From: an uncultured Gammaproteobacteria bacterium
GTDB taxonomy: Bacteria; Patescibacteriota; Microgenomatia; JAMCZE01
Direction of reading: 5' to 3'
DNA: 64,000 nucleotides
NCBI GenBank assembly: GCA_964609775.1
Contig: CAZSSJ010000002.1
Coordinates: forward strand, 19,260 to 83,259
Shown here: piece by piece, positions 1 to 62,154 of the stretch
Position numbering within the stretch: position 1 is the stretch's first letter
Layout of the letters: each line of letters begins with the position of its first letter
Program-made: the position numbers and the translations under genes
The notes under the pieces: generated by a model
Databases searched by the model: none
Told to the model about the DNA's origin: nothing
What the model saw: the letters and a program-made list of their open reading frames with translations, nothing else

Positions 1-2
1 GG

Positions 3-395
3 GACGTTATCGAACATTTTACCGACCCGGTTTCGGAAATTACAAAAGTTTATCGCACCCTAAAAAAGGGCGGAGTTTTCGCTTTTTCCACCGTCGACCC
101 TGAGAGTCTAACGGCTAAAATTAGGGGGAGTAAGTGGCCCTGGTATATGGAAATGCACCGAGTCTTATTAAGCCGGCCGGTCATTGAACGCTATCTTCGA
201 CAGTCGGGATTTAAAACAGTCTTTTTTAGGTCACATTGGCGTTTTTTTTCGTTAGGTTATGCTGCCACCAGGTGGGAAACTATCAGTCCCACACTTGCTC
301 GAATTTTGACCAGCGCAGTTAAGATTATGCACCTACAGAAAGTCTTAGTGCCGTTTTATGCTAACGATCTCTACGACTGCTATGCGTTTAAGTAG
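3..395 (+). CDS. Class I SAM-dependent methyltransferase, C-terminal fragment (5' end outside window)
   Basis: Frame 3 is open from the window edge to TAG 393-395. The translation DVIEHFTDPVSEITKVYRTLKKGGVFAFSTVDP... is the typical region after motif II/III of Methyltransf_11-type enzymes (xEH..DP, LKxGG). Confidence 0.7.
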   Translation, partial: DVIEHFTDPVSEITKVYRTLKKGGVFAFSTVDPESLTAKIRGSKWPWYMEMHRVLLSRPVIERYLRQSGFKTVFFRSHWRFFSLGYAATRWETISPTLARILTSAVKIMHLQKVLVPFYANDLYDCYAFK

Positions 396-1947
396 CCACC
401 AGCCAAAGCCACTGTCTCTAATTATCCTGGTAACCGTTCTCCTTGCGGCCTTCTTCCTTCGCACCTGGCCGACTCTGAGTGACACCACCCATTTTTCCTT
501 TGATCAGGGCCTGGACATGATCATGGCCAAACTGTTGATCGTCGATCACCAGATCAACTTAATCAGTCGCCACAGTGGACTTCAGGGCGTCTTGATGGGC
601 CCCCTCTGGACTTATTTTCTGGCCACCCCTTTTGCCCTTTCAGGTGGTCACCCCTCCGGCAACGTCATCTTCCTGTCTGTTTTTAATCTGGTCACCTCTG
701 TTCTGGCAACTGTGCTGGTCGGCCGGAAATTCGGCTTGACTGCCGGAGTTGTTACCGGACTTTTTTTTCTGTTCTCACCCTCCTTCATCACCGGTTCTCA
801 AGTAGTCCTTAGTCCTTATCCTCTAATACCCTTATTTATTTTTTTCCCCCTACTTGCCCACGAAACCCTAGTTAACAAAAGCAGTCGTTTCGCCTGGCTT
901 CTCATGCTGCTCTTGGGACTATACTTTCAATTCGAAGTCGGCTTTGCCATTTTTGCCCTTCTCGCTTTTGTTGTCCTTTTTGTTTTTTTCCACTCGTGGT
1001 GGCTTTTTAAAAAGCGGTCATTCTGGGCAGGCTGTGGGCTTTTTGTCTTGACATTTTTGCCCCAGATCCTTTTTGACCTTCGCCACCAATTTCTGATAAC
1101 CAGCGGTTTGTTAGCCTACTTTACTGGCAGTAATACTAGTCTTTACCAGAAGTCAGCTCCACTCATCATTCGCCTCGCTCAGCGATTATATTCATTCTAT
1201 GAAGACGCGACCGCAATGGCATTTTTTGGCCATTGGTCGGTGAATATTGCTCTTCTTCTTCTGGTGGTTTCCGGCTGGATAGTCGCTCTAAAGCATGACG
1301 CAAAAACCCATCGGAAATTTTTGCAAATGATCCTTTTGACATTGGCGTCTTTTTTTATCGGTTTTACCCTTTATCCTGGTCCGATTTGGGGTTGGTATCG
1401 AATTGGCCTACCGGCAATCTACATCTTTCTTGTTTCCATACCAACTGGCGTCCTTTGGCAGAGAATGTATCGTCTTCGGCCGTTAATTCTGATCGTTCTA
1501 ATCGCACTATTTTTGACTGGCGTCAAACCCTGGACTCTCTGGCACCTATATAAAAATCCAGGTGTTGGCGGAGTGGGGACACTCAATAATCAAAAAAAAG
1601 TCATCGACTACGTTTATTCTCAGGCAGAGGGAAAGCCGTTCAACTATCTCGTCTATACCCCGCCGGTCTATGACTACATCTGGCAATATGACTTTTGGTG
1701 GTACGGAAGACAAAAATATGGCTATCTTCCGACAAATTGGCAAATGAGTGTGCCCCTATTGGGAATCGGGGAACAATCCAAACCTCCTGCCACCAAAGAA
1801 CCTTTCTTTCTCATTATTGAGCCAAATACCGACCACCCCGACGAATCCGTCAATTGGAAGAAGACTTTAAAACTAGAGCCAGCAGATTCAAAAGCTACTC
1901 TTCCCGGAGGAATTATCGTCGAAAGTCGGCAAGGCGACAATTTATGA
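382..1947 (+). CDS. Polytopic membrane protein, divergent ArnT/PMT_2-like GT-C candidate
   Basis: ORF 358-1947. ATG 382 (MRLSSHQPKPLSLIILVTVLLAAFFLR) gives a 14-nt overlap with the upstream stop. It has many hydrophobic segments. Its C-terminal soluble tail (FNYLVYTPPVYDYIWQYDFWWYG) resembles the tails of the GT39-like paralogs downstream. Confidence 0.45.
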   Translation: MRLSSHQPKPLSLIILVTVLLAAFFLRTWPTLSDTTHFSFDQGLDMIMAKLLIVDHQINLISRHSGLQGVLMGPLWTYFLATPFALSGGHPSGNVIFLSVFNLVTSVLATVLVGRKFGLTAGVVTGLFFLFSPSFITGSQVVLSPYPLIPLFIFFPLLAHETLVNKSSRFAWLLMLLLGLYFQFEVGFAIFALLAFVVLFVFFHSWWLFKKRSFWAGCGLFVLTFLPQILFDLRHQFLITSGLLAYFTGSNTSLYQKSAPLIIRLAQRLYSFYEDATAMAFFGHWSVNIALLLLVVSGWIVALKHDAKTHRKFLQMILLTLASFFIGFTLYPGPIWGWYRIGLPAIYIFLVSIPTGVLWQRMYRLRPLILIVLIALFLTGVKPWTLWHLYKNPGVGGVGTLNNQKKVIDYVYSQAEGKPFNYLVYTPPVYDYIWQYDFWWYGRQKYGYLPTNWQMSVPLLGIGEQSKPPATKEPFFLIIEPNTDHPDESVNWKKTLKLEPADSKATLPGGIIVESRQGDNL

Positions 1948-4010
1948 TCGGTGACTTCCTGCCACTGCAAACAAATCTTTTACCCTATTGGTTTTTTCCC
2001 TGGAACACTAATTCCTGGTCAGGCTTTACTCCCTTTATTTTCCACAAGGAACTATTAGCTATCGACGCTCTGCGCCAGATTTTTGTCTGGAAAGAATTTG
2101 CTTTTTCCCAAATCAGACTAGGTGGGTGGCCGCTCTGGAATCCCTACAGTTTTTCCGGTCAGCCGCTTTTGGCCAATTTCCAATCCTCGGTTTTCTATCC
2201 GTTGTCTTGGTTTTTTATGTTTCTGCCGCCCATGATTGCCTGGGCGGCTTATGTTTTTAGTCAGCCGCTCCTTTTAGTCACTTTTATGTTCTTCTGGATG
2301 CGACCAAAAGTGGGTGCCGTTGCCGCCCTTTTTGCCGCCCTCGCCCTTGCAACGGCCAGTTTTTTTGCCACCCGCTATTTCTGGGGAGTCTACGTTCATT
2401 CGCTGTTATGGATTCCTCTGGGGTTAGGCCTGATTGACCGCTACAAAGAAGCCAAAATCAAAACATCATCTTTCGTCGCCTCTTTTTCCCTGGTTTGTGT
2501 CTTAACGGTTCTGGGTGGTTATCCTCAGTTTGGCTTGTACGCCATTGCCCTTTTGGGAGCGTACTATTTGTATATTTTTGGCAAAAAGCGCCTGCTCCTC
2601 TTTCTCCTTTCCCTGATTTTGGCCTTGTTAATTTCCGCCGTCCAGTTAATCCCAACAGCCGAACTATACCGCTATTCGCTTCGTGAGGGAACTGCCTCAG
2701 CCCGGACCTTTAGCGATTCCCTCTTGTCTCCGAAATACCTTGCTACCATAGTTTACCCCGACATGTTTGGCAGTCCGGCAGTTAATGACTACACTGGAGG
2801 CAAAGACTACTCTGGTGTCAACGGCTATTTTGGCGTCGTCCCCTTTCTTCTGGCTTCGGGTGCTGCTATTTTCTTACGAAGGGACAGACAAGTTAGGTTT
2901 TGGATCGCCGTTGGAGCATTGGGGCTACTTCTTGCCTACGACAATCCTTTTGCTCGGCTACCTCAGGTGTTGCCCTTGCCCATCATAAGCAGCGGGAATG
3001 CGTGGCACAACCTTTTCTTTTTTCAGTTTGCCGGTGTCGTATTAGCCACAATTCTACTTACCAGGTTACCAAAGAGAGCCATTCTCATCTGTCTCCTGTT
3101 GACAACCTTCTTAGGCTTCTATTATTCACTGAAAGTGTCACCCTTCGGACAGACCAAATATTTTTATCCTCCCCACCCTCTTCTTTCTTGGCTAAGGCAA
3201 AATGCTGGCCTAGATCGGTTTTATGGTTATCGCAGTTCCCACTTTCTTTCTAATCTTTCCACCTACTATCGCATCTATAGTCCCGAGGGCTATGACAGTC
3301 TTTGGCCGTCTTGGTACGGAGAGTTACTTTCCTCCGCTGACAGAGGTAAAGTTCCTCCGGAAGTAAATCGGGCGGATGTCTCCGTGACTGATTGGGACAC
3401 TTCCTACCGGCGTAAATTGCTAAATCTTCTGGGGGTCAAATATTTTTTAGACAAATCTGATAAACCCGGCGGCGACCAAGGTCCAAACCTGGCCAAGTAC
3501 CCGGCCGGGCAATTTGTCTTAAGGAAACAATGGGGAGAAGTGTCCATCTATGAAAACAAAGAGGCCTTGCCGAGAGCTTTTTTGGCAGACGGCGTCATCT
3601 CTGCCCCAAAATCGGAAGTCATCGAGAAAATCTATTCTTTGCCCTCGCTTCGGACCATCATCTTGGATTCACCACCCGGCCTGGGGTCAAAAAAACTGAC
3701 CACCGGATCAGCGAGTATTAAAAAATATCTTCCCAATGAGGTAATCGTGACCACCAATTCCCCTGGTAATTCCCTCCTCTTTTTATCCGATACCTACTTC
3801 CCCGGTTGGGATGCTTTCGTAGACGGCCACAAAGCAAAAATCCTTCGGGCTGACTATGCCTTTCGGGCAGTCCCTGTTCCTCCCGGAAAAAATGAAGTAA
3901 GATTCATATATCAACCAAAATCATTTTTTCTTGGGATTTCTATGAGTTTATTAGGGAGCGCGATCTGGCTATGGCTGTTGTTAAAAAATTTTTTCAAGAA
4001 AACTGGCTAG
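1944..4010 (+). CDS. YfhO-like GT-C membrane glycosyltransferase (paralog 1)
   Basis: ATGA overlap with the upstream stop. Motifs: FFPWN, WPLWNPYSFSGQPLLANFQSSVFYPL, and C-terminal LSDTYFPGWDAFVDGHKAKILRADYAFRAVPVPPG. About 690 aa and polytopic. Confidence 0.6.
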   Translation: MIGDFLPLQTNLLPYWFFPWNTNSWSGFTPFIFHKELLAIDALRQIFVWKEFAFSQIRLGGWPLWNPYSFSGQPLLANFQSSVFYPLSWFFMFLPPMIAWAAYVFSQPLLLVTFMFFWMRPKVGAVAALFAALALATASFFATRYFWGVYVHSLLWIPLGLGLIDRYKEAKIKTSSFVASFSLVCVLTVLGGYPQFGLYAIALLGAYYLYIFGKKRLLLFLLSLILALLISAVQLIPTAELYRYSLREGTASARTFSDSLLSPKYLATIVYPDMFGSPAVNDYTGGKDYSGVNGYFGVVPFLLASGAAIFLRRDRQVRFWIAVGALGLLLAYDNPFARLPQVLPLPIISSGNAWHNLFFFQFAGVVLATILLTRLPKRAILICLLLTTFLGFYYSLKVSPFGQTKYFYPPHPLLSWLRQNAGLDRFYGYRSSHFLSNLSTYYRIYSPEGYDSLWPSWYGELLSSADRGKVPPEVNRADVSVTDWDTSYRRKLLNLLGVKYFLDKSDKPGGDQGPNLAKYPAGQFVLRKQWGEVSIYENKEALPRAFLADGVISAPKSEVIEKIYSLPSLRTIILDSPPGLGSKKLTTGSASIKKYLPNEVIVTTNSPGNSLLFLSDTYFPGWDAFVDGHKAKILRADYAFRAVPVPPGKNEVRFIYQPKSFFLGISMSLLGSAIWLWLLLKNFFKKTG

Positions 4011-6325
4011 TCATCTTTGCTCTGGGTGTCTCCAATCTTGTTTCTTTTTGGCAATTCTACCTTAAGGGTTTGTTACCCTTTCCCGGGGACCTTCTAGTTT
4101 CCTTTTTCTTTCCTTGGAACTCTGGAGGGTTTGTGGGCTTTGATTCCTGGACCACCCACAAGGAATACATCGCCTCCGACGCTCTCCGTGCCCTTTTCCC
4201 CTGGAAGGTCGAAGTCATCCGTCAATTCTTAAGCGGCAATTTTCCTTTGTGGAACCCCTTCAACTTTGCTGGTACACCGCTTCTGGCTGATTTCCAGTCC
4301 GGAGCCTTTTTTCCCACTAATCTTCTTTACGCCTTTCTGCCTCCTCTCACCGTCTGGATTCTCCAAGTGCTAGTTCTCTTGAGTCTGTTTGCCTTTTTTT
4401 CCTATCTGTTCCTGCGTGCCCTCAAACTCTCACCACTTGCCAGTGCTTTTGGAGCTGTTGTTTTGTCGAATTTACCCTATTTGGTCAACTGGCACGAGAT
4501 CCTCGTCGTGACGCAAAGTGCCCTCTTCTTGCCTCTGGATTTGTACCTACTTGAGAAATTTGCTCAAACAAAAAAAACTATTTATCTTTTTTTTCTGCCC
4601 CTTTTTTTGGCCTTCGCAATTTTTGCTGGCCATCCCCAGACAATCATTATGGTCTTCTTTCTCATCGGAAGTTATGCTCTTTTCCGCCGCTTGTCTTTGG
4701 GCAGAATTTTCCTAATTTTCGTAATCTCACTTCTTTTGGGTGCTGTCCAGTTGTTGCCGTCCTGGCAGTTTTATGAATTCTCGGCCCGGGAAGCAGGAGA
4801 CACGGCTAAACTTTTCCTTGACCACCTCTTCCCGTGGCGAAACGTAATAACCGCCCTAGCTCCGGATTTCTTTGGCAATCCGGTGACCGGAAACTTTTGG
4901 GGGTGGGATTATCACAACTCTCTTGCTTATATTGGTGTGACCGCTTTGTTCCTGGCCCTGTTTTCGTTCTTTTGGCAGTCCAGGAGAAGAGAGGTTGGCT
5001 TTTTTGCCCTGCTGGCACTTATTGGCTTGTTGCTGGCCACCTCTCCACTGGCCAACATTTTTCTCTTCTTTAAAATCCCGATTCTCTCCACCGGCATTGC
5101 CGCCAGGAATATTTTTTTCTGGCAGTTTTCTTTGGGAGTTCTCTCCGCTTTTGGTTTGGACTATCTCCTAAATAAGGTCCGACAAAGCAGGTCTCGGTGG
5201 CATTTTGCCCCCCTAATATTTCTTCTAGTTTTATATCTACTGCTTTGGGTTGTTGTCCTCACAAGCTCTTCCCCGGAGTTTCTTATAAGTCGCCATAATC
5301 TGATTCTCCCCACGGCCATCTTTATCCTGACAGCCATCCTGATTCTCGGCGTCATTGTCCAGCCAAAAATAGGAAAATATCTTCTCTTTGTGCTTTTAGC
5401 ATTGGCAATCTTTGAACAGGGGCGCTATTTTAATAAAATCGAACCCTTCGCTAGCCCCGCCTTTGTCTTTCCCGACCACCCGGTCCTGACTTTTTTGCAG
5501 GAAAATGCCGGAACCAACCGCTTTATCGGAGCAGGGACAGCCAAAATTGATAGCAACTTTGCCACCTACTACCGCATTTTTGACCCCCAGGGCTATGACC
5601 CACTCTATCTTCTTCGCTATGGCCAGCTGCTCGCGGCCTCAAAAAATGGCGGTAAAAAAGCGCCTGTCATCTCCCGGGCTGATGCGATGATCGCCAATTT
5701 GGACCGAAATGATGGCTTTAAAGACCGCTTACTCGATATTTTGGGAGTCAAATACGTCCTCGATAATGAAAATATGTCTGTCGCCAGAGACTGGGAACCG
5801 GGGACTCTTGAGACTGCAAACAACCGCCATCTGCTTGTTTGGCAGCAAGAGAACAAGTGGAAAATTTACGAGCGACAAACCGCCCTCCCCCGAACCTTTT
5901 TGGCCGGAAGCTATGAAGTTGCCTCCTCTGATGAGGCAATTTTGGCACGTCTCTTTGATCCAGACTTTGCTGCTCAAGACAAAATTATCTTGGAAAAAGA
6001 TCCCGGTTTTCCAATCACCAATCAAGGCTCTGCCGAGGCAGTAATCACTCATTATTCTCCCAATACCGTCACGATTCAGACCCGTTCCGACCACCCTCGG
6101 CTGCTTTTTCTTTCGGATAATTACTATCACGGTTGGCTAGCAACCCTTGACGGCCAAAAGGCGGAGATTTTTCGGGCTAACTACACTTTTCGCGCCGTTG
6201 CCGCCCCTTCCGGATCGCACGTGGTGGAATTTAGATATAGTCCGGAGTCATTTCGCCTTGGACTAGTTGTCAGCGTTCTGGGTTTGCTGCTATGGCTAAA
6301 ATTTTTGCGACCAACAAGAAGCTAA
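3971..6325 (+). CDS. YfhO-like GT-C membrane glycosyltransferase (paralog 2)
   Basis: 784-aa ORF. Motifs: FPGDLLVSFFFPWNSGGF, FPLWNPFNFAGTPLLADFQSGAFFP, and C-terminal LSDNYYHGWLATLDGQKAEIFRANYTFRAV. Overlaps the upstream gene by 40 nt. Confidence 0.6.
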   Translation: MAVVKKFFQENWLVIFALGVSNLVSFWQFYLKGLLPFPGDLLVSFFFPWNSGGFVGFDSWTTHKEYIASDALRALFPWKVEVIRQFLSGNFPLWNPFNFAGTPLLADFQSGAFFPTNLLYAFLPPLTVWILQVLVLLSLFAFFSYLFLRALKLSPLASAFGAVVLSNLPYLVNWHEILVVTQSALFLPLDLYLLEKFAQTKKTIYLFFLPLFLAFAIFAGHPQTIIMVFFLIGSYALFRRLSLGRIFLIFVISLLLGAVQLLPSWQFYEFSAREAGDTAKLFLDHLFPWRNVITALAPDFFGNPVTGNFWGWDYHNSLAYIGVTALFLALFSFFWQSRRREVGFFALLALIGLLLATSPLANIFLFFKIPILSTGIAARNIFFWQFSLGVLSAFGLDYLLNKVRQSRSRWHFAPLIFLLVLYLLLWVVVLTSSSPEFLISRHNLILPTAIFILTAILILGVIVQPKIGKYLLFVLLALAIFEQGRYFNKIEPFASPAFVFPDHPVLTFLQENAGTNRFIGAGTAKIDSNFATYYRIFDPQGYDPLYLLRYGQLLAASKNGGKKAPVISRADAMIANLDRNDGFKDRLLDILGVKYVLDNENMSVARDWEPGTLETANNRHLLVWQQENKWKIYERQTALPRTFLAGSYEVASSDEAILARLFDPDFAAQDKIILEKDPGFPITNQGSAEAVITHYSPNTVTIQTRSDHPRLLFLSDNYYHGWLATLDGQKAEIFRANYTFRAVAAPSGSHVVEFRYSPESFRLGLVVSVLGLLLWLKFLRPTRS

Positions 6326-15767: not shown

Positions 15768-15770
15768 TCT

Positions 15771-35137: not shown

Positions 35138-35145
35138 CCAAACCT

Positions 35146-35317: not shown

Positions 35318-35325
35318 CTTAATAT

Positions 35326-51367: not shown

Positions 51368-51379
51368 CGCCATCTGATA

Positions 51380-54190: not shown

Positions 54191-55242
54191 CAGTCTGCTA
54201 TTTTGGCTACTACCGACCCTTTCATTCTAGAAATCGCAACCTCATACTTGGTTTACGGAGAAATGGTGTTAACGTAATTGAATGCAATGCTGTAGTGCCG
54301 TTTATTCAAGGAAGATACTTTTGTCTTCTTGCAAAATACTTCCGCTATGGCACAGGGGCGGATGTGATTATTGTTGGTTTTCCTGGGCACACAGATGTGC
54401 CCCTTGCCTGGGCTTTAGCGAAAATTTTTCACCGAAAGTTAGTTTTTGACGCTTTTACTTCTATGTATTTAAACCTTGTGTATGACCGCCAGGATGTTGC
54501 TCAACATTCTTTGAAGGCTTTAGTCTACTGGCTAGTCGACTGGTTAAGTTGCCTGCTATCAGATAAAGTTCTGGTCGATACTTCCGATAACCAACAATAT
54601 TTTGCTAAAGAGTTTTCTGTTAAGGTGGATAAAATTGCCTGTATTCCTGTATGTTTTGACGAAAGTATTTTTAAACCGCAAAAAGCGATTAATGGTGATA
54701 GTTGTATCGTCGGTTGGCACGGCACTTTCCTCCCGCTTCAGGGGGTGGAGACTATTATCGCAGCAGCGCAAAAACTTAAGAACGTGAATATAAATTTTCG
54801 CCTTTTAGGCTACGGGCGAGAGAAAGACATGAGTGTTAAATTAGTAAAAAAGAAGGGCTTGAAAAATATTTATTTTTTTGATCGAGTAAATTACCAACGC
54901 CTGCCAGATTTTATCAGTGGCTGTGATATTTATCTTGGAGGACCGTTTGGCCAGAATTTAAAGGCCAACATGGTTATACCAAATAAGGTAGTAGAGGCAA
55001 TGGCCATGGGCAAGCCGGTAATTTGTGCTGACACACCTGCCATGCGGCGAGCTTTTGTTTCGGGAAAAGAAGTTTTGTTAACAACACAAAGTAATCAGCT
55101 TGCTTTAGCTAGGGCGATAATAAGTCTGAAGGAAAGCCCCAAGCTACGCGAAACCCTGGGTCATAACGCACTAAGGGCTGCTTCTTTCTATACTAGCAAG
55201 AATATTGGTCGCTTATTACTTCAAAAAATCGCCCAGCTATAA
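54187..55242 (+). CDS. GT-B glycosyltransferase (GT4-like)
   Basis: ATGA overlap. Motifs: VGWHGTFLPLQGVETII and IPNKVVEAMAMGKPVICADTPAMRRAF. Confidence 0.6.
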   Translation: MTVCYFGYYRPFHSRNRNLILGLRRNGVNVIECNAVVPFIQGRYFCLLAKYFRYGTGADVIIVGFPGHTDVPLAWALAKIFHRKLVFDAFTSMYLNLVYDRQDVAQHSLKALVYWLVDWLSCLLSDKVLVDTSDNQQYFAKEFSVKVDKIACIPVCFDESIFKPQKAINGDSCIVGWHGTFLPLQGVETIIAAAQKLKNVNINFRLLGYGREKDMSVKLVKKKGLKNIYFFDRVNYQRLPDFISGCDIYLGGPFGQNLKANMVIPNKVVEAMAMGKPVICADTPAMRRAFVSGKEVLLTTQSNQLALARAIISLKESPKLRETLGHNALRAASFYTSKNIGRLLLQKIAQL

Positions 55243-55256
55243 TATACTTTCTAAAG

Positions 55257-56462
55257 ATGCGTAAGATAGGTTATCTAGAGGGGTTAAGAGGCATCGCTGC
55301 GTTCATTGTCGTCCTTAATCATTTTGCCGTATCCTTTTTCCCGGCATTGTATAACGGAAAGATAACCCAGGCTCATACCTTATCCTGGCTAGAATCGGCT
55401 ATCGCTAGTAGCCCTATTAATTTTTTTTATAATGGCAACTTTGCCGTCGCTGTTTTCTTTGTTCTTAGCGGCTTTGTCCTCTCATACAACTATTTCAAAA
55501 CTCTACGTGTAGAGGTAATTGTGTCCGGAGCAATTAAACGATATTTCCGGCTAGTGATTCCGGTTGCCTTTACTGTCCTGTTGGCCTACTTATTCATGAA
55601 ATTTTCATTTTTCTTTAACAAACAGGCCGGAGAGATAAGTTATTCGACTTGGTGGCTATCAAGATATTGGGAATTTGATACCAATCTAATAGATGTTTTA
55701 AATACCGCATTTATTAGAGTGCTCTTTTTTGGTGATGTTAGATTTAATCACATATTGTGGACGATGCGTTATGAGTTTTTTGGATCCATAATTGTATTCA
55801 CGACGTTATTTATCTTTCGACAAAGAAGGTATCGATATGCGGCTTATATCATTCTTAGTTTATGGTTTTTAAGGTCATACTATCTTCCATTTATCCTTGG
55901 TTTGGTTCTCTCCGACCTATATAGTCTTAAAAGATACACAGTTAAACTAAATAAAGATTTAAAAAGAATTTGTCTTCTATTGCTGGGATTTGTTGGTTTA
56001 TATTTAAGTTCCTGTCCCAGTGGAGCCCCAATAAGAAATACAATCTATGCCCCCTTGTTTATCTTGGATCGTTATCCCTACACCTTTTATCACATCTTAG
56101 GGGCTTTAATGCTCATGATTACTCTTTTAAATTGGACAGCGCTGCAAAACTTATTTTCAAACAGACTATTTATCTTTTTGGGCAGAATATCGTTTTCTAT
56201 GTATTTGCTTCATTTGATAGTGATTGGTTCCTTATCCAGTCTACTGTTAATTATTTTGACTCACTATTTTACCTATCCTGTTGCAGCTATGCTCGTCTTT
56301 GTGATATCGATGCCGGTCTTAGTATTTACCTCCTATTTAATGTACGTGCTGGTGGATAGTAAGGGTACCATCCTATCTAAAATTATTTGTCGTTGGCTCA
56401 CTGGGTCAATCAGGCGGCAACAATTCGCCAACCAGTTTGTCCTTGGTGGCAAAAAATCATAA
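55257..56462 (+). CDS. Acyltransferase family 3 membrane O-acyltransferase (OafA/WecH-like)
   Basis: The motif IGYLEGLRGIAAFIVVLNHF is typical of the Acyl_transf_3 N-terminus. About 10 TM segments. Confidence 0.8.
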   Translation: MRKIGYLEGLRGIAAFIVVLNHFAVSFFPALYNGKITQAHTLSWLESAIASSPINFFYNGNFAVAVFFVLSGFVLSYNYFKTLRVEVIVSGAIKRYFRLVIPVAFTVLLAYLFMKFSFFFNKQAGEISYSTWWLSRYWEFDTNLIDVLNTAFIRVLFFGDVRFNHILWTMRYEFFGSIIVFTTLFIFRQRRYRYAAYIILSLWFLRSYYLPFILGLVLSDLYSLKRYTVKLNKDLKRICLLLLGFVGLYLSSCPSGAPIRNTIYAPLFILDRYPYTFYHILGALMLMITLLNWTALQNLFSNRLFIFLGRISFSMYLLHLIVIGSLSSLLLIILTHYFTYPVAAMLVFVISMPVLVFTSYLMYVLVDSKGTILSKIICRWLTGSIRRQQFANQFVLGGKKS

Positions 56463-56471
56463 AATAGATTT

Positions 56472-57284
56472 ATGGAAATAATCATTCGACCAAAAAGTGT
56501 CTTCAATCTAGATTTTAAAGAAATCTGGCATTATCGCGAACTTTTTTACGTCTTTGCCTGGCGAGATATTAAAGTCCGTTATAAACAAACAGTTTTAGGC
56601 ATCTCGTGGGCTCTTTTTCAACCTCTAGTTACGACTGGAATATTTAGCATTTTTTTTGGAAAAATTGCCAAAATCCCTTCTGACCATATCCCATACCCGT
56701 TATTTGTTCTTACTGGATTGGTTTTTTGGAGCTTTTTTTCAAATAGTGTTACGGCGGCAAGTCAAAGCATGGTCGCCAGTGAAAACATCATCAAAAAAGT
56801 CTACTTTCCACGCCTGATTATTCCACTTTCCTCAATTGTGACAGCCGGGCTTGACTTTCTAATTTCCTTTTTGATGCTATTACTAGTAATGGTTTACTAC
56901 CGGTATTTTCCTCAATTTACCAGCCTGCTAGTTCTCCCAGTGTTGTTGCTTACTTTAATTCTCACTGCTGGGGGAATCGGTTTATTTACATCAGCGATTA
57001 ATGTCAAATATCGCGATGTCAGATATATCCTGCCGTTTTTCATCCAAATTGGGCTCTTCGTTACTCCCATTATCTATCCAATAAGTGTTATCTTGGACTA
57101 CCGTAAATGGCTTCTGATTCTCAATCCTCTGACCTCAGTAATCGAAACAGCGCGTGCCCTCTATTCGGGCAAACCAATAAATTATTTTCTCATCTCTTTA
57201 GGCTTTGCGATTTCGGTCGTCATATTTTCTCTCGGCCTTTACTATTTTCGCAAGACCGAAGCTTTCTTTGCTGACGTCGCTTAG
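56472..57284 (+). CDS. wzm: ABC-2 type polysaccharide/teichoic-acid exporter permease
   Basis: Motif: FKEIWHYRELFYVFAWRDIKVRYKQTVLGISWALFQPLVTT. Six hydrophobic segments. It sits immediately upstream of the ATPase gene. Confidence 0.85.
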   Translation: MEIIIRPKSVFNLDFKEIWHYRELFYVFAWRDIKVRYKQTVLGISWALFQPLVTTGIFSIFFGKIAKIPSDHIPYPLFVLTGLVFWSFFSNSVTAASQSMVASENIIKKVYFPRLIIPLSSIVTAGLDFLISFLMLLLVMVYYRYFPQFTSLLVLPVLLLTLILTAGGIGLFTSAINVKYRDVRYILPFFIQIGLFVTPIIYPISVILDYRKWLLILNPLTSVIETARALYSGKPINYFLISLGFAISVVIFSLGLYYFRKTEAFFADVA

Positions 57285-57293
57285 ACTTTTGCT

Positions 57294-58574
57294 ATGGACA
57301 ATATTATTGAAGTCAGTGATCTATCTAAAAAGTACCGTCTCGGCCAAGAACAGCGCTATTACACGCTACGGGACAGCATTGCGTCTTTGTCTTCGCTTCC
57401 CAAACAGCTTTGGGGGGTGTGGGGAAATTTTAGCGAAATTCTTGAAAAAAATGAATTTTGGGCTCTTAAAGACGTTTCTTTTTCGGTCAAACGAGGCGAA
57501 GTTGTTGGAGTCATCGGGAAAAACGGTGCTGGTAAAAGCACTCTGCTTAAAATTCTGTCTCGCATCACTCCTCCAACCTATGGTCAAGCTCGACTGCGTG
57601 GTCGTGTAGCTAGCCTTCTGGAGGTTGGAACTGGTTTTAACCAGGAATTAACAGGCCGCGAAAATATCTTTCTCAACGGTGCTATCTTAGGCATGAGCCG
57701 CCAAGAGGTAAGAAGAAAATTCGACGAGATAGTCGCTTTTGCCGAAGTCGAAAGGTTCATCGACACGCCAGTGAAACGTTATTCTTCAGGGATGTATTTG
57801 CGCCTTGCCTTTGCCGTCGCCGCCCATTTGGAACCAGAAATACTTCTGGTTGACGAAGTCCTTTCCGTTGGTGATGCCCAATTTCAAGAAAAGAGTTTGG
57901 GAAAAATGCGCGAAATTACCCAGCAGGAAGGCAGGACAATAATATTTGTCAGTCACAACATGGGTGCAATTAACGCTCTTTGCAACCGGTGTTTATTGCT
58001 TGAACAAGGGCAGACTGTCGCTTTCGGCGAAACCGCCGAGGTCGTCACCAAATACTTATCGTCGAAAAGAAAATCAGTCAACAATATTTGGAAGATTCCG
58101 AAAAAACCGTCCGTCCCATTTTATGTTTCTAAAATGTGGTTAACTGACGAAAACGGGAAAGCTATTTCTCAAATAGAGATGGGAGAAAATGTTAACCTCA
58201 ATCTAGAAGCTAAAATTACTCAGGAAATCAGGGATGGAGTCCTTGCCGCTCTCGTCGCTACGGAAGGATCACCGCTTCTTTATATCTATGATACTGACAA
58301 CTCCCCAGAACTGCGTCGGAAGCGTCGGGTAGGTAAATATTTTGAACAGGTTCTCCTGCCCACATCCATATTTAAAGAAGGCGACTACACGATCAGTATA
58401 ATGATCGGCCACGGACAAGATAATCTCACCGACCAAAACTGTGAAATTTCCTTCAAGATCGTTAACACCAAAAGGGATTTGACACACCTCAGTTTCCGTA
58501 AAAACAGACTAGGATTTCTTTATCAGGAAACCCACTGGGAGGTGCGCCAACTTGGACGTCAAAAAGAGTACTAA
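57294..58574 (+). CDS. wzt: ABC exporter ATP-binding protein with a C-terminal extension (Wzt/TagH-like)
   Basis: Walker A GKNGAGKST, signature YSSGMYLRLAFA, Walker B ILLVDEVLSVGD. An extra ~170-aa C-terminal region (FYVSKMWLTDENGKAISQIEMGENVNLNLEA...) resembles a Wzt_C beta-sandwich. Confidence 0.85.
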   Translation: MDNIIEVSDLSKKYRLGQEQRYYTLRDSIASLSSLPKQLWGVWGNFSEILEKNEFWALKDVSFSVKRGEVVGVIGKNGAGKSTLLKILSRITPPTYGQARLRGRVASLLEVGTGFNQELTGRENIFLNGAILGMSRQEVRRKFDEIVAFAEVERFIDTPVKRYSSGMYLRLAFAVAAHLEPEILLVDEVLSVGDAQFQEKSLGKMREITQQEGRTIIFVSHNMGAINALCNRCLLLEQGQTVAFGETAEVVTKYLSSKRKSVNNIWKIPKKPSVPFYVSKMWLTDENGKAISQIEMGENVNLNLEAKITQEIRDGVLAALVATEGSPLLYIYDTDNSPELRRKRRVGKYFEQVLLPTSIFKEGDYTISIMIGHGQDNLTDQNCEISFKIVNTKRDLTHLSFRKNRLGFLYQETHWEVRQLGRQKEY

Positions 58575-59520
58575 CCACCTTGTCCGGTACTTAGACAGGG
58601 CCTTTGGAGTCAGATCAGTTTTTCCTCTAAACCCGGTCAGAAAAAGGGCCAGAAAGGAACTTCTTAGACGGCTATCATCCGGAATTTATAAATTCCAGGA
58701 GATAAATTGTCCCTCCTGTGCCAGTCATAGATTTACAATCTTGGCTAAACAGGACATGTACGCCCTGCCGCATCTTGTGGTCATTTGCCTCTGTTGCTCG
58801 CTGGTTTATACGCGACAAAGATTGACGGAAAAATCTTTGTCAAACTTTTATCAAAATCTCTACCAGCAGTTAGACCGGGGTAGGGATTTGCCAAAAGAAG
58901 AATATTTCCGTTTAGAATCTAAAAAAGGACAAGACATTTTCCACTATATGTTCAATAACTCTTTGCTACCTCCTAAAAACACACTCATTGTTGAAATTGG
59001 TTGTGGTGTTGGAGGCGTACTTTATCCATTCCGAAAGTACGGTTATGAGATAATAGGTTGCGATTTCAATCAAGACTATATCAATTTTGGCATCACCACC
59101 CGCGGTCTTAATCTAAAAGCTGGAGGATTGAAAGAGATATCAAAAGTCCTCTTTAAAAGCAAAAAGAAAGTAGGTCTAGTCATTTATGAACAAGTATTTG
59201 AACATCTACCTGACCCCAAAAAAGAATTAACACAACTTAAAAAAATTATGACATCAAACACTTTACTCTATCTTGGCGTTCCAGGAATTAAAAATATTCG
59301 TCATCACTACCAGGAAAATTTTCGTGCATTCCTTCAATTTCCCCATTTGACCTATTTTGAACTGTCAACTCTTAAATCTCTGCTTGCTAGTCAGGGATTT
59401 CAATTATTAAAGGGGACTGAGAGAATTAGAGGAGTTTTTAAACTGGGTCAGAAAAGAAATATCCTCCTCACCAACCCGGATGGGATTATAACCTATATTC
59501 AAAATTTGAAATTTATCTAA
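58552..59520 (+). CDS. Class I SAM-dependent methyltransferase with an N-terminal CxxC...CxxC zinc ribbon
   Basis: TTG start overlapping wzt by 23 nt. Motifs: CPSC..(x30)..CLCC, VEIGCGVGGVL (motif I), GCDFN and VIYEQVFEHLPDP. Confidence 0.7.
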   Translation: MDVKKSTNHLVRYLDRAFGVRSVFPLNPVRKRARKELLRRLSSGIYKFQEINCPSCASHRFTILAKQDMYALPHLVVICLCCSLVYTRQRLTEKSLSNFYQNLYQQLDRGRDLPKEEYFRLESKKGQDIFHYMFNNSLLPPKNTLIVEIGCGVGGVLYPFRKYGYEIIGCDFNQDYINFGITTRGLNLKAGGLKEISKVLFKSKKKVGLVIYEQVFEHLPDPKKELTQLKKIMTSNTLLYLGVPGIKNIRHHYQENFRAFLQFPHLTYFELSTLKSLLASQGFQLLKGTERIRGVFKLGQKRNILLTNPDGIITYIQNLKFI

Positions 59521-59532
59521 TTTGCCATCCCT

Positions 59533-60258
59533 ATGGCTTTGGAAAAGCAAGACCTAACGCTGCTCCTTAGATTAAGAAAACAATATCCCGAAGGAAAAAA
59601 TCTGTGTATTTTAGGCGATTGCACTTTTCATTTTACCGATGAAACACTCAATCGAAAGTGTGGAATTAAATTTAAAGGGCAAGCAAAACAGACGACTTTA
59701 AAGTCTTTTAGCCAAGCCTATGGCTTCGAAACAGCGGTGACTATAGATATTGACGGCAATCCAACCCTTAAATTCGATTTACAAAAGAAGCTCCCTCGGA
59801 ATTTGATCGGAAAATTTGATTGGGTTATTGATGCTGGCACGTTATTCTGGTGTTTTGATATTGCCGGGATTTGGGAAAATATCCTCCTGCTTCTTAAGCC
59901 TCACGGTTGTGTGTTTCACATTGATGCCTTAACCGGCTATTTTGGCCGGGGTTATTATTCTTTGCATCCACGGTTGTTTAGCGATTTCTATAGCCAGAAT
60001 GGCCTAAAAATTATTACGTTCGCTTACCGTCTCAGGCCACCATCCCTTAATATTATCGAAAAAAGGTTCCGGAGACTTGAGTGGCAACCTTTTCCGCCAA
60101 GCCACATGTTTTTAAAAAATGCGGATAAATTTAATATGGAATTTTCTGATAAAAACACCACGGACCCGTCAATTGTGCCAAATGATGCCGTTTTGGCCTG
60201 TTTCGCGGTAAGGGCGAAAAAAGTGCCTTTCCAAACCGTTTTACCGTCAAATATTTAA
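59533..60258 (+). CDS. Hypothetical protein, divergent methyltransferase-fold candidate
   Basis: The order of NLCILGDCT, TIDIDG, FDWVIDAGTLFW and LLKPHGCVFH mimics class I MTase motifs I, II, IV and post-IV, but the glycine-rich loop is degenerate. Confidence 0.35.
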   Translation: MALEKQDLTLLLRLRKQYPEGKNLCILGDCTFHFTDETLNRKCGIKFKGQAKQTTLKSFSQAYGFETAVTIDIDGNPTLKFDLQKKLPRNLIGKFDWVIDAGTLFWCFDIAGIWENILLLLKPHGCVFHIDALTGYFGRGYYSLHPRLFSDFYSQNGLKIITFAYRLRPPSLNIIEKRFRRLEWQPFPPSHMFLKNADKFNMEFSDKNTTDPSIVPNDAVLACFAVRAKKVPFQTVLPSNI

Positions 60259-60276
60259 TTACTTGAGTTAATACCT

Positions 60277-60915
60277 GTGCCAAATAACGCCGATATTCTT
60301 ATTGTTGTAGCTCACCCGGACGACGAGTCCTTATGGTTTGGCGAAGGAATTCACCAGCTGGTAGCTAGGGGCAAAAATATAATTGTCCTTTGCCTCTCAG
60401 GTGGATCAAATCCAATCCGAAGCGCCGAATTTAAAAAAGCCTGCTTAAGACTCAAAGTTAAAGGCAAGATGCTGAACAATCCTGATCGAGGGATGCCGCG
60501 TTTGCAGACTAGCCCAAGTGACCTAGATTTGGTCGATTGGCATCCCGAATATGTGATAACTCATGCACCGTGGGGAAATGAACGACATCATCCCCACCAC
60601 CAACAGTGCTTTCAAATCTCCCGGTCATGGGCTTTAAAAGGGGGAATTCCGTTTGGTTATTTCTCGGAAAAAAAACCTCTCATTCTGAATCCTTTAATAG
60701 AAACGATCGAGTTTTCAGTCAACCGTCCGAGGAAAAACGCCCTTTTGTCCATCTATGATTCAGAAATTTCCGGACTTCGCGACTACGAAGCCTACCACCA
60801 CGACAAGGAATATCTAATTATCGAGCGAAAATATTTTTCCCGCATTTCCAAGATATTCACTAGGCTTTGCCAAACCTTAAGTTCTATTTTCGAATCGCGA
60901 GGACCACGAACGTGA
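60277..60915 (+). CDS. PIG-L/LmbE-family N-acetylglucosaminyl deacetylase
   Basis: GTG start. The signature ILIVVAHPDDESLWFG (AHPDDE) is followed by HHPHH. Confidence 0.8.
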   Translation: MPNNADILIVVAHPDDESLWFGEGIHQLVARGKNIIVLCLSGGSNPIRSAEFKKACLRLKVKGKMLNNPDRGMPRLQTSPSDLDLVDWHPEYVITHAPWGNERHHPHHQQCFQISRSWALKGGIPFGYFSEKKPLILNPLIETIEFSVNRPRKNALLSIYDSEISGLRDYEAYHHDKEYLIIERKYFSRISKIFTRLCQTLSSIFESRGPRT

Positions 60916-60966
60916 GTTCGAGGCGTTGCGAGAGAAAAGAAACTGGCGAAGCCAAAACGAAAGAGA

Positions 60967-60986
60967 CCTCGGGCGTAAGCCCGAGG
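60967..60986 (+). terminator. Perfect 8-bp GC-rich stem with a GTAA (GNRA) loop in a 96-bp spacer
   Basis: CCTCGGGC-GTAA-GCCCGAGG, read directly. The following sequence (AGTTTCATAC) has only a weak U tract, so terminator function is uncertain. Confidence 0.3.
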
Positions 60987-61011
60987 AGTTTCATACAATT
61001 AAAATAATCAG

Positions 61012-62154
61012 ATGCCGTGCATATTAAAAAAACTGGCAAGGAAAAGTCCGGGTATAGTCACTTTTACTCATAACGAAGCCCTATATGGTTTACCGGCGAG
61101 ATCGCGTAAGGTTAAAAACTACATTACCCAAACCTCTGGGAAAAGATGGATTTATGGCGTTCATCTTCAGGGCAGCTTGAAACATCTGAAGGAGTGGCCA
61201 CTTGAGCCCTGGCAAGCATTCATTTCTTGGTCGAACCCAAAGTCCCCATTTCTGTCAAATGTCCCCACCGAAAAACTAATTGATATTAATCACATTAATC
61301 TTCTACCCGAATTTGGGTTTACCCCACGCCCTAAGATTTGGGACATCATCATTATTTCTCGGCCATCAAAAATTAAAAGAATTCAGGAATCAGTTTTCAT
61401 CATTAAAAAATTAATGTTGAAAAGACCTGAGTTAAAAACAATTTTTATCGTTCCAACTCCCAGTCGGCAAGCCAAAGACATTGACCGGAGTTTTTTTGAA
61501 TTGCCCAAAAGGTTATTTTCTACTAAAGAGATGAAAAATACATCATTTATTGTTTCACCGACTGAAAGTTTCGGAAATTTTCCCGTTTCCTCAGAACTAA
61601 TATCAAAATTGATTTCACAGTCAAAATTTTTACTGTTAACTTCTCACCGTGAAGGTGGGCCACGGGCGATTGGCGAAGCGCTTCTGGCGGGAACACCCTG
61701 CATTATATCTAAAAATTTAGACACGGGAATCGTGGGCGTTTTTGACAATAAAAATACTCTCACAATCGACGACAATATCGATCTAGCCACGCAGCAAATT
61801 AATCAAGGCTTGCAAAATTACTCTTCATTTAAAATTGATGATAAAAAAATCTGCCGCTTTTTCAGTGAGCGGCATAATAAGCCAATATTTAAAGCCAAAT
61901 TATCAAAACTACTAACACAAATGAGTTACCAGGTGGCGGGAGAATGGTATCTTGAAGATTTGTCTTTTCGGCTCTGCGGTCACGGTCGAAAATTCAGTTT
62001 TCAATCCCTGGACGACGACCGACAATTCTTTTTTTGGTTTGATAAGATTACTTCAGTAAATCCATATGATGAAGATGGTCTGATTTATCACCCCGAATCA
62101 TTATCAGACTATGCTCTTCGGAAACTAAAAAGGTTATGGCAGACAAGACGCTGA
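61012..62154 (+). CDS. Hypothetical protein, GT-B (GT4-like) C-terminal Rossmann domain candidate
   Basis: Motifs: WDIIIISRPSKIKR and LLLTSHREGGPRAIGEALLAGTPCIISKN (E-x7-E-like). The N-terminal half is not recognisable. Confidence 0.4.
   Translation: MPCILKKLARKSPGIVTFTHNEALYGLPARSRKVKNYITQTSGKRWIYGVHLQGSLKHLKEWPLEPWQAFISWSNPKSPFLSNVPTEKLIDINHINLLPEFGFTPRPKIWDIIIISRPSKIKRIQESVFIIKKLMLKRPELKTIFIVPTPSRQAKDIDRSFFELPKRLFSTKEMKNTSFIVSPTESFGNFPVSSELISKLISQSKFLLLTSHREGGPRAIGEALLAGTPCIISKNLDTGIVGVFDNKNTLTIDDNIDLATQQINQGLQNYSSFKIDDKKICRFFSERHNKPIFKAKLSKLLTQMSYQVAGEWYLEDLSFRLCGHGRKFSFQSLDDDRQFFFWFDKITSVNPYDEDGLIYHPESLSDYALRKLKRLWQTRR

Follow-up and report, generated by a model that had tools for sequence, protein, structure and literature searches.

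The stretch of DNA analysed here, referred to as the window, comprises 64,000 nucleotides of contig CAZSSJ010000002.1 (assembly GCA_964609775.1, positions 19,260 to 83,259 of the forward strand) from a member of the Microgenomates, part of the candidate phyla radiation (CPR; also called Patescibacteria). Between positions 3 and 62154 it holds an array of 52 genes, 21 of which encode polytopic membrane proteins assigned to the GT-C type of glycosyltransferase. We think it likely, from homology and gene content, that the array is a conserved locus for building an envelope glycan in a monoderm CPR bacterium, one in which the synthesis of a polymer in the cytoplasm is joined to extracytoplasmic glycosylation by GT-C enzymes on an unprecedented scale. 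The locus is best read as an extreme expansion of a known pathway, that of an ABC-exported polymer decorated by way of a GtrB-type synthase, a flippase and a GT-C transferase, and not as a new mechanism. Genes are named by their start coordinate in the window and lie on the plus strand unless stated otherwise.

The GT-C membrane transferases

The 21 GT-C-type genes make up 34.7 kb, or 56% of the 62 kb; an earlier reading of the letters alone (the sequence-only reading) had proposed about 20. Fourteen of them match a Pfam family above its cut-off. Four are YfhO proteins, three of them in tandem (1944-4010, 3971-6325 and 6292-8616; 67-95 bits) and 37-47% identical as paralogues, the fourth at 20347-22557 (79 bits), with exact copies in contigs of the Joint Genome Institute (JGI). 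Two belong to PTPS_related, namely 8613-10103 (PF10131, 43.6 bits; hhalign 98.6% to the YfhO family) and 37536-39206 (52.9 bits). Six fall in PMT_2/PMT: the ArnT/Pmt-like 10100-11749, 23234-24859, 26810-28399, 29747-31252, 32907-34478 and the short 46352-47593 (33.4 bits). The remaining two are a GT87 protein at 28399-29778 (30.4 bits), whose precomputed assignment is PF26314, MptA_B_family, and which thus resembles mycobacterial mannosyltransferases, and a PIG-V-like protein at 40880-42100 (PF04188, Mannosyl_trans2, 32.6 bits against a cut-off of 22.4). The start codon of 40880 is uncertain, and its longest open reading frame (ORF) overlaps the preceding gene by 143 nt.

Four further genes stand below the Pfam cut-offs. 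The 578-aa product of 11718-13454 is related by BLAST to its PTPS_related paralogues 8613 and 37536 (1e-51), a third member of a set for which three or four had been proposed. The products of 24867-26402 and 31258-32910 are related in the same manner to the PMT_2 paralogues (8e-80 and 2e-98, respectively), with BLAST values of 1e-62 to 1e-86 among paralogues recorded for 23234 and 24867. The divergent 521-aa protein of 382-1947, whose start was fixed by exact look-up, was placed by profile comparison: hhalign gives 98% to PMT_2, with control profiles (the MOP flippase and an acyltransferase) below 3% against everything.

Six of the PMT_2 proteins are mutually related, five of them at 30-41% identity and the sixth (10100-11749) at 27-30% to the rest. 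In eight PMT_2-like paralogues, D32, which is part of a DE motif directly after the first transmembrane helix (TM1), and D49 are invariant; 10100, 23234 and 24867 are among the genes in which the motif was noted. The aspartate of a DE motif in this position is the catalytic signature of PMT/ArnT-type enzymes. A joint profile of the PMT_2 paralogues, 26810 included, retrieves ArnT (5EZM) from the PDB at 1.9e-5, and also Pmt4; searched as single sequences, the 26810 (PMT_2) and 6292 (YfhO) proteins had no match in the PDB.

The two or three polytopic genes that the sequence-only reading had left unassigned, 16645-18378 (577 aa), 36082-37539 (485 aa) and 45235-46365 (376 aa), turned out to be GT-C-like too. 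The first belongs to a large family (944 representative homologues, counted as clusters) with no Pfam match in the ten members tested; its profile aligns at 94.7% over 373 columns with the 382-1947 family and at 89.9% with PTPS_related (controls below 1%). Among 38 homologues of 36082, D33-D34, which follow closely on TM1, do not vary, and K172-E173-T174 is invariant in the family too. The AlphaFold2 model of 36082 has a pLDDT of 90.8, and its top Foldseek matches among solved structures are PglB, STT3, AglB, Pmt4 and ArnT, with a Foldseek probability of 1.0; hhalign gives 96% to PMT_2 and to PTPS_related. The predicted model of 45235 matches, at the level of the fold, STT3, Pmt4, glycosylphosphatidylinositol (GPI) mannosyltransferase I and ALG3, as well as ALG6, ALG9 and ALG12. 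Profile comparison of 36082 and 45235 yielded no result with thin alignments and worked only after homologue searches, and NCBIfam returned sub-threshold hints only for the proteins that Pfam left unassigned.

By homology and predicted structure, then, all 21 polytopic candidates are of the GT-C type, and the GT-C fold is predicted also for members without a family match. The possibility that most of them belong to families other than glycosyltransferases fails on Pfam, hhalign and Foldseek alike. From homology and from the donor synthases encoded beside them, we infer that these proteins present an acidic loop to the outside and use polyprenyl-phosphate sugars as donors. The composition proposed by the sequence-only reading is almost entirely right: four YfhO, six related PMT_2, one GT87-like and one PIG-V-like protein, eight GT2 and nine GT4 enzymes, one MOP flippase and one ABC exporter were all recovered, and only the methyltransferases had been overcounted (four were verified, not five).

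Candidate donor synthases, polymer genes and the proposed pathway

For four of the glycosyltransferases of family 2 (GT2), homology to polyprenyl-phosphate-sugar synthases covers most or all of the protein; one is of the GtrB/ArnC type and three are of the DPM1/AglJ/PpgS type. The first, 15771-16700, is a predicted GtrB/ArnC/PgfS-type polyprenyl-phosphate glycosyltransferase with two to three C-terminal transmembrane (TM) helices; it matches GtrB (PDB 5EKP, 8e-78) and ArnC (1e-43) at full length, and the NCBIfam PgfS model at 249 bits. The candidate polyprenyl-phosphate-hexose synthase 22554-23237 matches AglJ at 113 bits and, over their full length, the dolichyl-phosphate-hexose transferase and PpgS models. 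The third, 35326-36075, was assigned by Pfam and NCBIfam as a candidate synthase of the same type; the three DPM1/AglJ/PpgS-type enzymes match the AglJ, dolichyl-phosphate-hexose transferase and PpgS models at full length. The fourth, 42104-42784, is PpgS/GacI-like (NCBIfam PpgS, 147 bits, full length) and matches the dolichyl-phosphate mannose synthase 5MLZ and ArnC in the PDB. It is followed, with zero intergenic bases, by a small GacJ/Rv3632-like membrane protein of the DUF2304 family (42785-43129, 75.7 bits), a putative activator. The arrangement is that of the experimentally characterised pairs GacI-GacJ of Streptococcus pyogenes and PpgS-Rv3632 of Mycobacterium tuberculosis, in which the small protein binds and stimulates the polyprenyl-phosphate-sugar synthase (10.1101/180810).

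For the transfer of such donors across the membrane, two candidates are at hand. The MOP/Wzx-type protein of 13432-14877 (Polysacc_synt_3, 160 bits) is a candidate GacK-like flippase for a polyprenyl-phosphate sugar or a lipid-linked oligosaccharide. An EamA/DMT transporter found by Pfam at 62434-63015, beyond the range covered by the sequence-only reading, is a possible flippase or sugar transporter. A GtrA domain occurs at the array start in three relatives (loci L086, L087 and L098).

The part of the array from 43 to 62 kb holds seven of the nine GT4 genes, an EpsE-like GT2, three methyltransferases, an O-acyltransferase, a de-N-acetylase and a Wzm/Wzt pair, which by homology is the standard make-up of an ABC-transporter-dependent polymer pathway. 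Two GT4 genes (43129-45302) come first in it, and a conventional cytoplasmic GT2 (47590-48354; EpsE, 119 bits, full length) and an enolase-superfamily (MR_MLE) enzyme (48342-49349) lead into a cytoplasmic module at 49356-55242, where Pfam recognises GT4 enzymes at 49356, 51380, 53147 and 54187 and methyltransferases at 50588 and 52530. Next are a membrane O-acyltransferase (Acyl_transf_3, 55257-56462, 77.5 bits) and, at 56472-58574, an ABC-2 permease (Wzm, ABC2_membrane) with a Wzt/TagH-like ATPase (ABC_tran); the ATPase scores 175-202 bits with the NCBIfam teichoic-acid (TagH) and galactan exporter models. A third methyltransferase starts at 58756 according to the gene callers, or at 58552 in the longest ORF, and ends at 59520; three methyltransferases in all lie close to Wzm/Wzt, and no WbdD-like kinase is present. 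A soluble protein of 241 aa with no Pfam or NCBIfam match (59533-60258), a PIG-L/LmbE-type de-N-acetylase (60277-60915, 60.2 bits) and a divergent GT4-like protein (61012-62154; Glycos_transf_1, 27.6 bits) complete the array. The other two GT4 genes, members of the GT-B class and predicted to be cytoplasmic, are 19274-20350 (Glycos_transf_1) and 39973-41022 (115 bits). The first gene of the window (3-395) is the 3' part of a methyltransferase that would use S-adenosylmethionine (Methyltransf_23); the whole gene, which encodes 297 aa and starts upstream of the window, is found in an overlapping contig, and its orthologue is about 60% identical in L086 and L087.

On this basis we propose the following pathway. 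GT4 and GT2 enzymes would assemble a lipid-linked polymer in the cytoplasm, which would be methylated and acylated and then exported by Wzm/Wzt. In parallel, GT2 synthases, one of them with its DUF2304 helper, would load several sugars onto polyprenyl phosphate, and these would be flipped outward by the MOP protein, the EamA protein or, as suggested by the closest relative, where it is fused to a GT2, a GtrA domain. Outside the membrane, each GT-C enzyme would add one sugar in one linkage, extending and branching the exported polymer and possibly modifying surface proteins as well. Non-triplet repeats in two GT-C genes, described below, would allow single steps to be switched off, and the surface glycan would vary as a result. 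Since six or more families, MptA_B-like and PIG-V-like mannosyltransferase types among them, contribute to the 27 GT-C enzymes of the whole locus, the chemistry outside the membrane likely includes chain extension and branching, by analogy with mycobacterial lipomannan and lipoarabinomannan (LM/LAM) or the ALG and PIG reactions in the lumen of the endoplasmic reticulum (ER), and is not mere side-chain decoration. The sequence-only reading had stated that the acceptor is not encoded in the window; this is not well supported, as the simplest reading of the genes at 43-62 kb is that they encode a lipid-linked polymer, which would serve as an acceptor in its own right. Cells of groundwater CPR have no outer membrane and bear a periodic surface layer and pili (PMC7906910). 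Candidate acceptors are a wall- or membrane-linked polysaccharide, the S-layer and pilins.

Several observations weigh against this pathway. From about 10 kb upstream of the window to 10 kb past 62154 there is no initiating phosphoglycosyltransferase (WecA/WbaP), LytR-CpsA-Psr (LCP) ligase or Wzy/WaaL, as judged by the Pfam families Glycos_transf_4, Bac_transf, LytR_cpsA_psr and Wzy_C; initiator and ligase genes may lie elsewhere in the genome. The C-terminal Wzt_C match of the ATPase is weak (24.1 bits against a Pfam cut-off of 30.4), and a GtrA-family flippase is absent from the window according to Pfam. Three GT2 paralogues found by Pfam and BLAST have no place in the scheme, 14874-15767 (whose NCBIfam matches are N-terminal only), 18381-19187 and 39213-39971, and neither has the 148-aa protein of 26374-26820. 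The repeat polymorphism was seen in one variant assembly of about 24. Finally, a single polymer and several independent glycoconjugates are both compatible with the sequence.

The small 26374 protein has three TM segments and no Pfam or NCBIfam match. Its gene overlaps the start of the GT-C gene 26810, and orthologues 46-48% identical occupy the same position in GCA_023378825.1 and GCA_027371575.1. It could be a subunit or a flippase partner.

The GT-C enzymes might instead serve mainly to glycosylate proteins, attaching O-linked (or N-linked) sugars to the S-layer protein, type IV pilins or adhesins, with the paralogues directed to different targets, as are the eukaryotic PMT, TMTC and TMEM260 enzymes or actinobacterial Pmt. 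The shared DE motif of at least six paralogues in the PMT/PMT_2 families would suit such a role, and two of the GT2 enzymes match best AglJ (NCBIfam), which acts in archaeal S-layer N-glycosylation. CPR cells do display a surface layer and pili (PMC7906910), and a 1372-aa SpaA/SdrD-like surface protein is encoded a few genes upstream of the closest relative's array. However, PMT_2 also includes ArnT-like transferases that act on lipids and polysaccharides, and the YfhO, MptA_B/GT87 and PIG-V-like families are known from glycopolymer and glycolipid synthesis. Moreover, a complete Wzm/Wzt export module is present, no member of STT3/PglB/AglB is found by sequence, and the window encodes no candidate target protein. 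We regard a chiefly protein-directed role as unlikely but as a live rival, and it is not exclusive of polymer synthesis.

The resemblance to ArnC and ArnT could also suggest modification of lipid A or lipopolysaccharide for resistance to cationic peptides, as in Gram-negative bacteria: the PMT_2 profile matches ArnT, 15771 matches ArnC, and JGI names homologues "Ara4N transferase-like". But 15771 is far closer to GtrB than to ArnC (265 against 152 bits), and no genes for biosynthesis of 4-amino-4-deoxy-L-arabinose (Ara4N; ArnA/B/D) lie in the window. Since groundwater CPR cells have no outer membrane (PMC7906910), a role in lipid A modification was rejected; we consider it extremely improbable.

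Organisation, conservation and variation of the array

Tiling of the ORFs from 3 to 62154 gives 52 genes, including the 5'-truncated methyltransferase, 51 on the plus strand and one (34475-35122) on the minus strand, as the sequence-only reading had described. Background co-orientation, taken from the flanks of related loci, is about 73% of ORFs, and the chance of 51 of 52 co-oriented genes would be roughly 1e-6 if genes were independent, which they are not. The co-oriented run is well beyond background and exceeds the genome-wide strand bias, though it is helped by that bias. Junctions were counted from gene-caller starts where exact look-ups gave them. Of the 49 same-strand junctions, 30 overlap (14 by 4 nt, 2 by 1 nt and 14 by 11-143 nt) and another 16 have gaps of 0-20 nt, the co-directional, overlapping or very short junctions expected for an operon. 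Close packing was thus correctly noted, while the number of 4-nt overlaps had been put at 16. The three gaps of more than 80 nt that had been listed are present (19188-19273, 60916-61011 and the 203-nt region 35123-35325 adjoining the minus-strand gene), and a possible fourth, of 181 nt (58575-58755), arises when the methyltransferase is given the gene callers' start of 58756.

The frequency of overlap suggests long translationally coupled runs. A single "super-operon", as had been proposed, is not supported, in view of the three to four gaps of 86-203 nt, the divergent regulator gene, a drop in G+C content at 50-62 kb and a hairpin at 60967-60986. Scans of the whole window for sigma-70 promoter and terminator consensus sequences gave results at or near the level of shuffled sequence and defined no transcription units; CPR promoters are uncharacterised. 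The hairpin is a perfect 8-bp, G+C-rich one (CCTCGGGC gtaa GCCCGAGG) in the 96-nt gap before the last GT4-like gene, and it is the array's clearest candidate for a transcript end or processing site. The minus-strand gene encodes a PaaX_M (Cas2-like) domain protein (62.8 bits), a probable transcription regulator; its product has weak winged-helix matches and one predicted TM segment, and the gene is absent from the otherwise syntenic relative GCA_027371575.1. Shine-Dalgarno-like 4-mers precede 6 of 47 starts, barely above the 3.9 expected at random positions, and translation initiation apparently relies on coupling or other signals.

The G+C content is 0.39-0.42 at positions 50000-62000, the GT4/methyltransferase/Wzm-Wzt module, against 0.44-0.51 elsewhere; as happens in O-antigen clusters, this module may be variable or may have been exchanged laterally. 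Of the window's 2-kb blocks, 31 out of 32 show negative GC skew (to -0.23), C being in excess over G along the coding strand, and from 1 to 64000 the cumulative skew declines in a nearly straight line. Complete Microgenomates (UBA1400) genomes have been reported to show a persistent strand disparity of this sort (PMC7143001). Neither a tRNA nor any Rfam family was found in the window.

It may be asked whether the array is one locus or a glycosylation island, in which at least three independent pathways are co-located on the leading strand as separate transcription units. Such pathways would be, for example, a Wzx-type module at about 13-20 kb, several three-component decoration modules and the Wzm/Wzt module at 43-62 kb, the last of them maybe laterally acquired. 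The gaps of 86-203 nt at 19188, 35123, 60916 and possibly 58575, the divergent regulator gene 34475-35122, the fall in G+C after about 50 kb and the presence of both a MOP flippase and an ABC exporter are what an island would be expected to show. The same holds for the local gain and loss of genes within the arrays of relatives, and co-orientation is already about 73% in the background. Set against these are the 30 of 49 overlapping junctions, a gene order conserved over tens of kb between species, the need of the modules for the same polyprenyl-phosphate-sugar donors and the lack of any promoter or terminator signal above background. We hold the island to be a tenable alternative, to which we give somewhat less than an even chance.

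A single envelope-glycan locus is the reading that we favour, and its limits lie outside the range of 1-62154 given by the sequence-only reading, which is too narrow at both ends. On the 5' side, the 10 kb of overlapping contig upstream of the window encodes six further GT-C-like proteins (one of the MptA_B family), a GT2 and the full methyltransferase, all on the same strand, so that the array continues for at least 10 kb. In all, the glycan region spans about 75-80 kb and includes at least 27 GT-C genes. The upstream block is syntenic in L086 and L087, the closest two relatives (55-60% identity). Ahead of it they have a pair of GT2 genes, of which the second carries a fused GtrA/DPMS TM domain or has a separate GtrA gene after it, and ahead of these are housekeeping genes such as TrmD. 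By comparison with these relatives, the left start of the array probably lies about 2 kb beyond the upstream contig. Just upstream of the left edge, L086 (positions 46-7114) also encodes an RmlC-like epimerase and the 1372-aa protein, which is SpaA/SdrD-B prealbumin-like, a Gram-positive pilin or adhesin type, and a possible glycosylation target.

On the 3' side, the genes past 62154 encode, in order, a small membrane protein, the EamA transporter, a HAD phosphatase (63007-63588, minus strand), a CTP_transf_3 cytidylyltransferase (minus strand, from 63560 to beyond the window), PhyH, a NeuB-type synthase fused to AP_endonuc_2, a 457-aa protein without a family match and a Crp-type regulator; they occupy positions 62155-64000 of the window and 11125-18167 of locus L147. 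Judged by homology, the phosphatase, cytidylyltransferase and NeuB-type synthase look like a nonulosonic (sialic-like) acid activation set flanking the array, and so the glycan may carry such a sugar.

The earlier proposal to compare gene order in related genomes proved informative, as order is kept over tens of kb. Genes 16645 through 39973 have one-to-one orthologues in the same order in two Patescibacteria metagenome-assembled genomes (MAGs), GCA_023378825.1 and GCA_027371575.1. The orthologues are 43-63% identical, with one pair, the GT2 35326, reaching 75% in GCA_027371575.1. Some genes of the array have been gained, lost or inverted between relatives. In GCA_023378825.1 (L144 18128-19494, minus strand) the counterpart of the GT-C gene 36082 appears inverted and split into 281 and 175 aa, with a GHMP kinase and a SIS-domain gene inserted alongside; this is an example of turnover inside the array.

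Within the genome, the paralogues are 27-47% identical and are thus more divergent than the orthologues between genomes, which indicates that the duplications are old and that the copies have been retained. Recent tandem amplification was rejected for the same reason, each paralogue having its own orthologue. Old, retained paralogues of this kind argue for distinct functions; they look like non-redundant steps of an assembly line. In more distant Microgenomates (Woesebacteria, Shapirobacteria, Blackburnbacteria and Microgenomatus), the core consists of a GT2, a minus-strand GT-C-like gene, a GT2 and GT-C pairs interleaved with GT2 genes, and in many cases the array ends inside the 21-kb locus and has no more than 4-7 GT-C genes. 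Given that the distant cassettes are small, the window represents an extreme expansion of a lineage-wide cassette. Many GTDB representative MAGs with a cassette of the Microgenomates type bear the record name "uncultured Gammaproteobacteria bacterium", and single ones are filed under Clostridia, Nevskiaceae or Methanoperedens; such names have the look of placeholders or of wrong taxonomy.

An array so rich in paralogous genes could in principle mislead an assembler, and it was necessary to consider whether paralogous loci of several strains or species had been joined into a chimera, which the sequence-only reading had named as fatal to its proposal. Several short contigs of other samples (JGI 3300025015, SRR1658343 and ERZ27254728) stop at the same two points, about 11917 and about 31394-31429. 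However, the paralogues, at 27-47% protein identity, are too divergent to collapse or to be mis-joined, and the order recurs in other species with orthologues 43-63% identical. The window is part of a contig of about 140 kb that corresponds to the JGI contig C687J35174_10000097 (139,863 bp, in reverse orientation), and JGI, ENA (MEGAHIT) and Logan assemblies from several samples, with contigs of 112-140 kb made by different assemblers, are 100% identical to the window in every 500-nt block compared. A chimera was accordingly rejected, and we assign it virtually no probability. The shared contig ends lie just inside genes 11718 and 31258, upstream of the tandem repeats that these genes carry, and may mark strain-level rearrangement or alternative gene content. 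In the public records, array genes are deposited as hypothetical proteins. The 26810-28399 protein is 100% identical to UY21_C0001G0054 of "Microgenomates group bacterium GW2011_GWA1_48_10" from Rifle groundwater, and the 36082-37539 protein is identical to G0046 of the same record.

Tandem Repeats Finder detected only two arrays in the 64 kb, both perfect, both inside GT-C genes and both with units that are not multiples of three; 50 shuffles contained no repeats of this kind. One is TTATACT in 3.9 copies (12386-12412, codon 223 of gene 11718), the other the 8-nt unit ATTGCATT in 3.5 copies (31620-31647, codon 121 of gene 31258). Deletion of one 7-nt unit in silico shortens the 11718 product from 578 to 256 aa. 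A natural contig, ERZ27254754 k141_1535747 (L150 6281-6330), agrees with the other assemblies over 9.65 kb except that one TTATACT unit is missing, and the 578-aa enzyme is thereby split into 256 and 238 aa, as the in silico deletion predicted. This contig also carries one single-nucleotide polymorphism elsewhere, at window position 3648, which marks it as a separate genotype; it is not an error of local assembly. In gene 31258 the 8-nt repeat did not vary among four assemblies. The loss in 11718 has the classical signature of slipped-strand on/off switching and suggests a candidate phase-variable surface glycan. The "highly combinatorial" machine of the sequence-only reading was pure inference; it gains some support from this frameshift variant.

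It is tempting to go further and to imagine an ultra-small CPR clade that builds its main surface glycoconjugate almost wholly outside the cell. At least 27 non-redundant GT-C enzymes, encoded by one array of about 75-80 kb, would form a line like that of the ER lumen and draw on a handful of polyprenyl-phosphate sugars. Slippage of the 7-8-nt repeats would toggle some of the steps, so that many glycan variants arise per genome, for episymbiotic host recognition or escape from phages. We put this forward as a speculation that we ourselves think rather improbable in its full form.

Comparison with known systems

CPR bacteria account for much of the diversity of bacteria; they live attached to other microbes, and their very small genomes are without most biosynthesis. 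The array would amount to several percent of a genome of about 1 Mb, and the retention of at least 27 membrane glycosyltransferases in conserved order is a heavy investment in surface sugars. It offers candidate donor synthases, GT-C families without a Pfam model and a natural repeat polymorphism that could be traced in the existing Rifle time-series metagenomes, and, with at least six families side by side, it gathers the diversity of GT-C enzymes in a compact natural collection of use for structural studies and glyco-engineering. We found no account of GT-C arrays or glycosylation loci in CPR or Microgenomates, in a literature search whose coverage was incomplete and whose silence is not proof, and no characterised locus with so many GT-C genes in a row. 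The 29 glycosyltransferase genes of a complete Microgenomates genome have been remarked upon without further analysis (PMC7143001).

The statement of the sequence-only reading that no system with this architecture has been described is nevertheless overstated, because the parts of the locus match ABC-dependent wall polysaccharides and their GT2/flippase/GT-C decoration, with the streptococcal GacI/GacJ/GacK/GacL and GacD/E as the model, down to the GT2 and DUF2304 pair. In the pathway of the group A carbohydrate, cytoplasmic glycosyltransferases build a lipid-linked polymer that is exported by an ABC-2 transporter, while a GT2 with a directly downstream DUF2304 partner, a Wzx/MOP-type flippase and a GT-C enzyme add side chains outside (10.1101/180810). 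The window has counterparts of the polymer glycosyltransferases, the ABC-2 exporter, the GT2 and DUF2304 pair, the flippase (here a candidate) and the GT-C step of that pathway (GacO, GacB-G, GacD/E, GacI with GacJ, GacK, GacL) and of the related Epa, Rgp and lactococcal cell wall polysaccharide (CWPS) loci. Those loci contain one to a few GT-C genes in 15-30 kb, whereas here the window alone has 21 and the locus 27 or more, drawn from at least six families and accompanied by at least four donor synthases. It differs from Gac further in having no GacO-like initiator, rhamnose-polymerising enzymes or LCP ligase in the stretch examined, and in its CPR host of very reduced metabolism.

Three-component systems (GtrA/GtrB/GtrC, CsbB/GtcA/YfhO, ArnC/ArnEF/ArnT and PpgS/Rv3632/Rv3779) share with the array a GtrB-type GT2, GT-C enzymes of the YfhO and ArnT/PMT_2 types and a PpgS and Rv3632-like pair. 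Each of them consists of one synthase, one flippase and one GT-C enzyme, while in the array a few synthases must serve many GT-C enzymes and no GtrA/GtcA gene lies in the window. The LM/LAM and arabinogalactan pathways of the Corynebacterineae (PimE, MptA-C, EmbA-C, AftA-D, with Ppm1 and decaprenyl-phosphoryl-arabinose (DPA) donors) are alike in deploying a large GT-C set that polymerises and branches outside the membrane from polyprenyl-phosphate sugars; MptA_B/GT87 occurs twice in the locus, and the PpgS-like and DUF2304 pair is also mycobacterial. Mycobacterial GT-C genes number roughly 15-20 per 4.4-Mb genome and are scattered, with at most about three adjacent (embCAB). The array, in contrast, keeps at least 27 together, and no Emb/Aft families or DPA pathway genes were detected in it.

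Phase-variable lipooligosaccharide and capsule genes of Haemophilus, Neisseria and Campylobacter resemble the array in placing a perfect, non-triplet repeat within the coding sequence of a glycosyltransferase, where a change of one unit shifts the frame. They differ in that the units here are of 7 and 8 nt in 3-4 copies, not long homopolymers or tetranucleotide tracts, and stand in GT-C genes of a CPR host, where reversible switching is a candidate process.

The pathways of the eukaryotic ER lumen (ALG3/9/12/6/8/10, PIG-M/V/B/Z, the PMTs and STT3) employ a dozen or more GT-C enzymes, each adding one sugar in a fixed order from Dol-P-Man or Dol-P-Glc (dolichyl-phosphate mannose or glucose) supplied by DPM1/ALG5-type GT2 synthases. 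The models of 36082 and 45235 match STT3, Pmt4, GPI mannosyltransferase I and ALG3, and PIG-V-like and PIG-L-like genes are present; this likeness is at the level of the fold and implies no orthology. The bacterial array is clustered and probably polycistronic, and no oligosaccharyltransferase homologue is found in it by sequence. Taken together, these comparisons place the novelty of the locus in its scale and its host and not in its kind, since all its enzyme classes and its general logic were already familiar. The new elements are the number of GT-C genes and their contiguity, the occurrence of these genes in an episymbiont lineage with minimal genomes, the repeat polymorphism, and one or more GT-C families of considerable size that lack a curated model.

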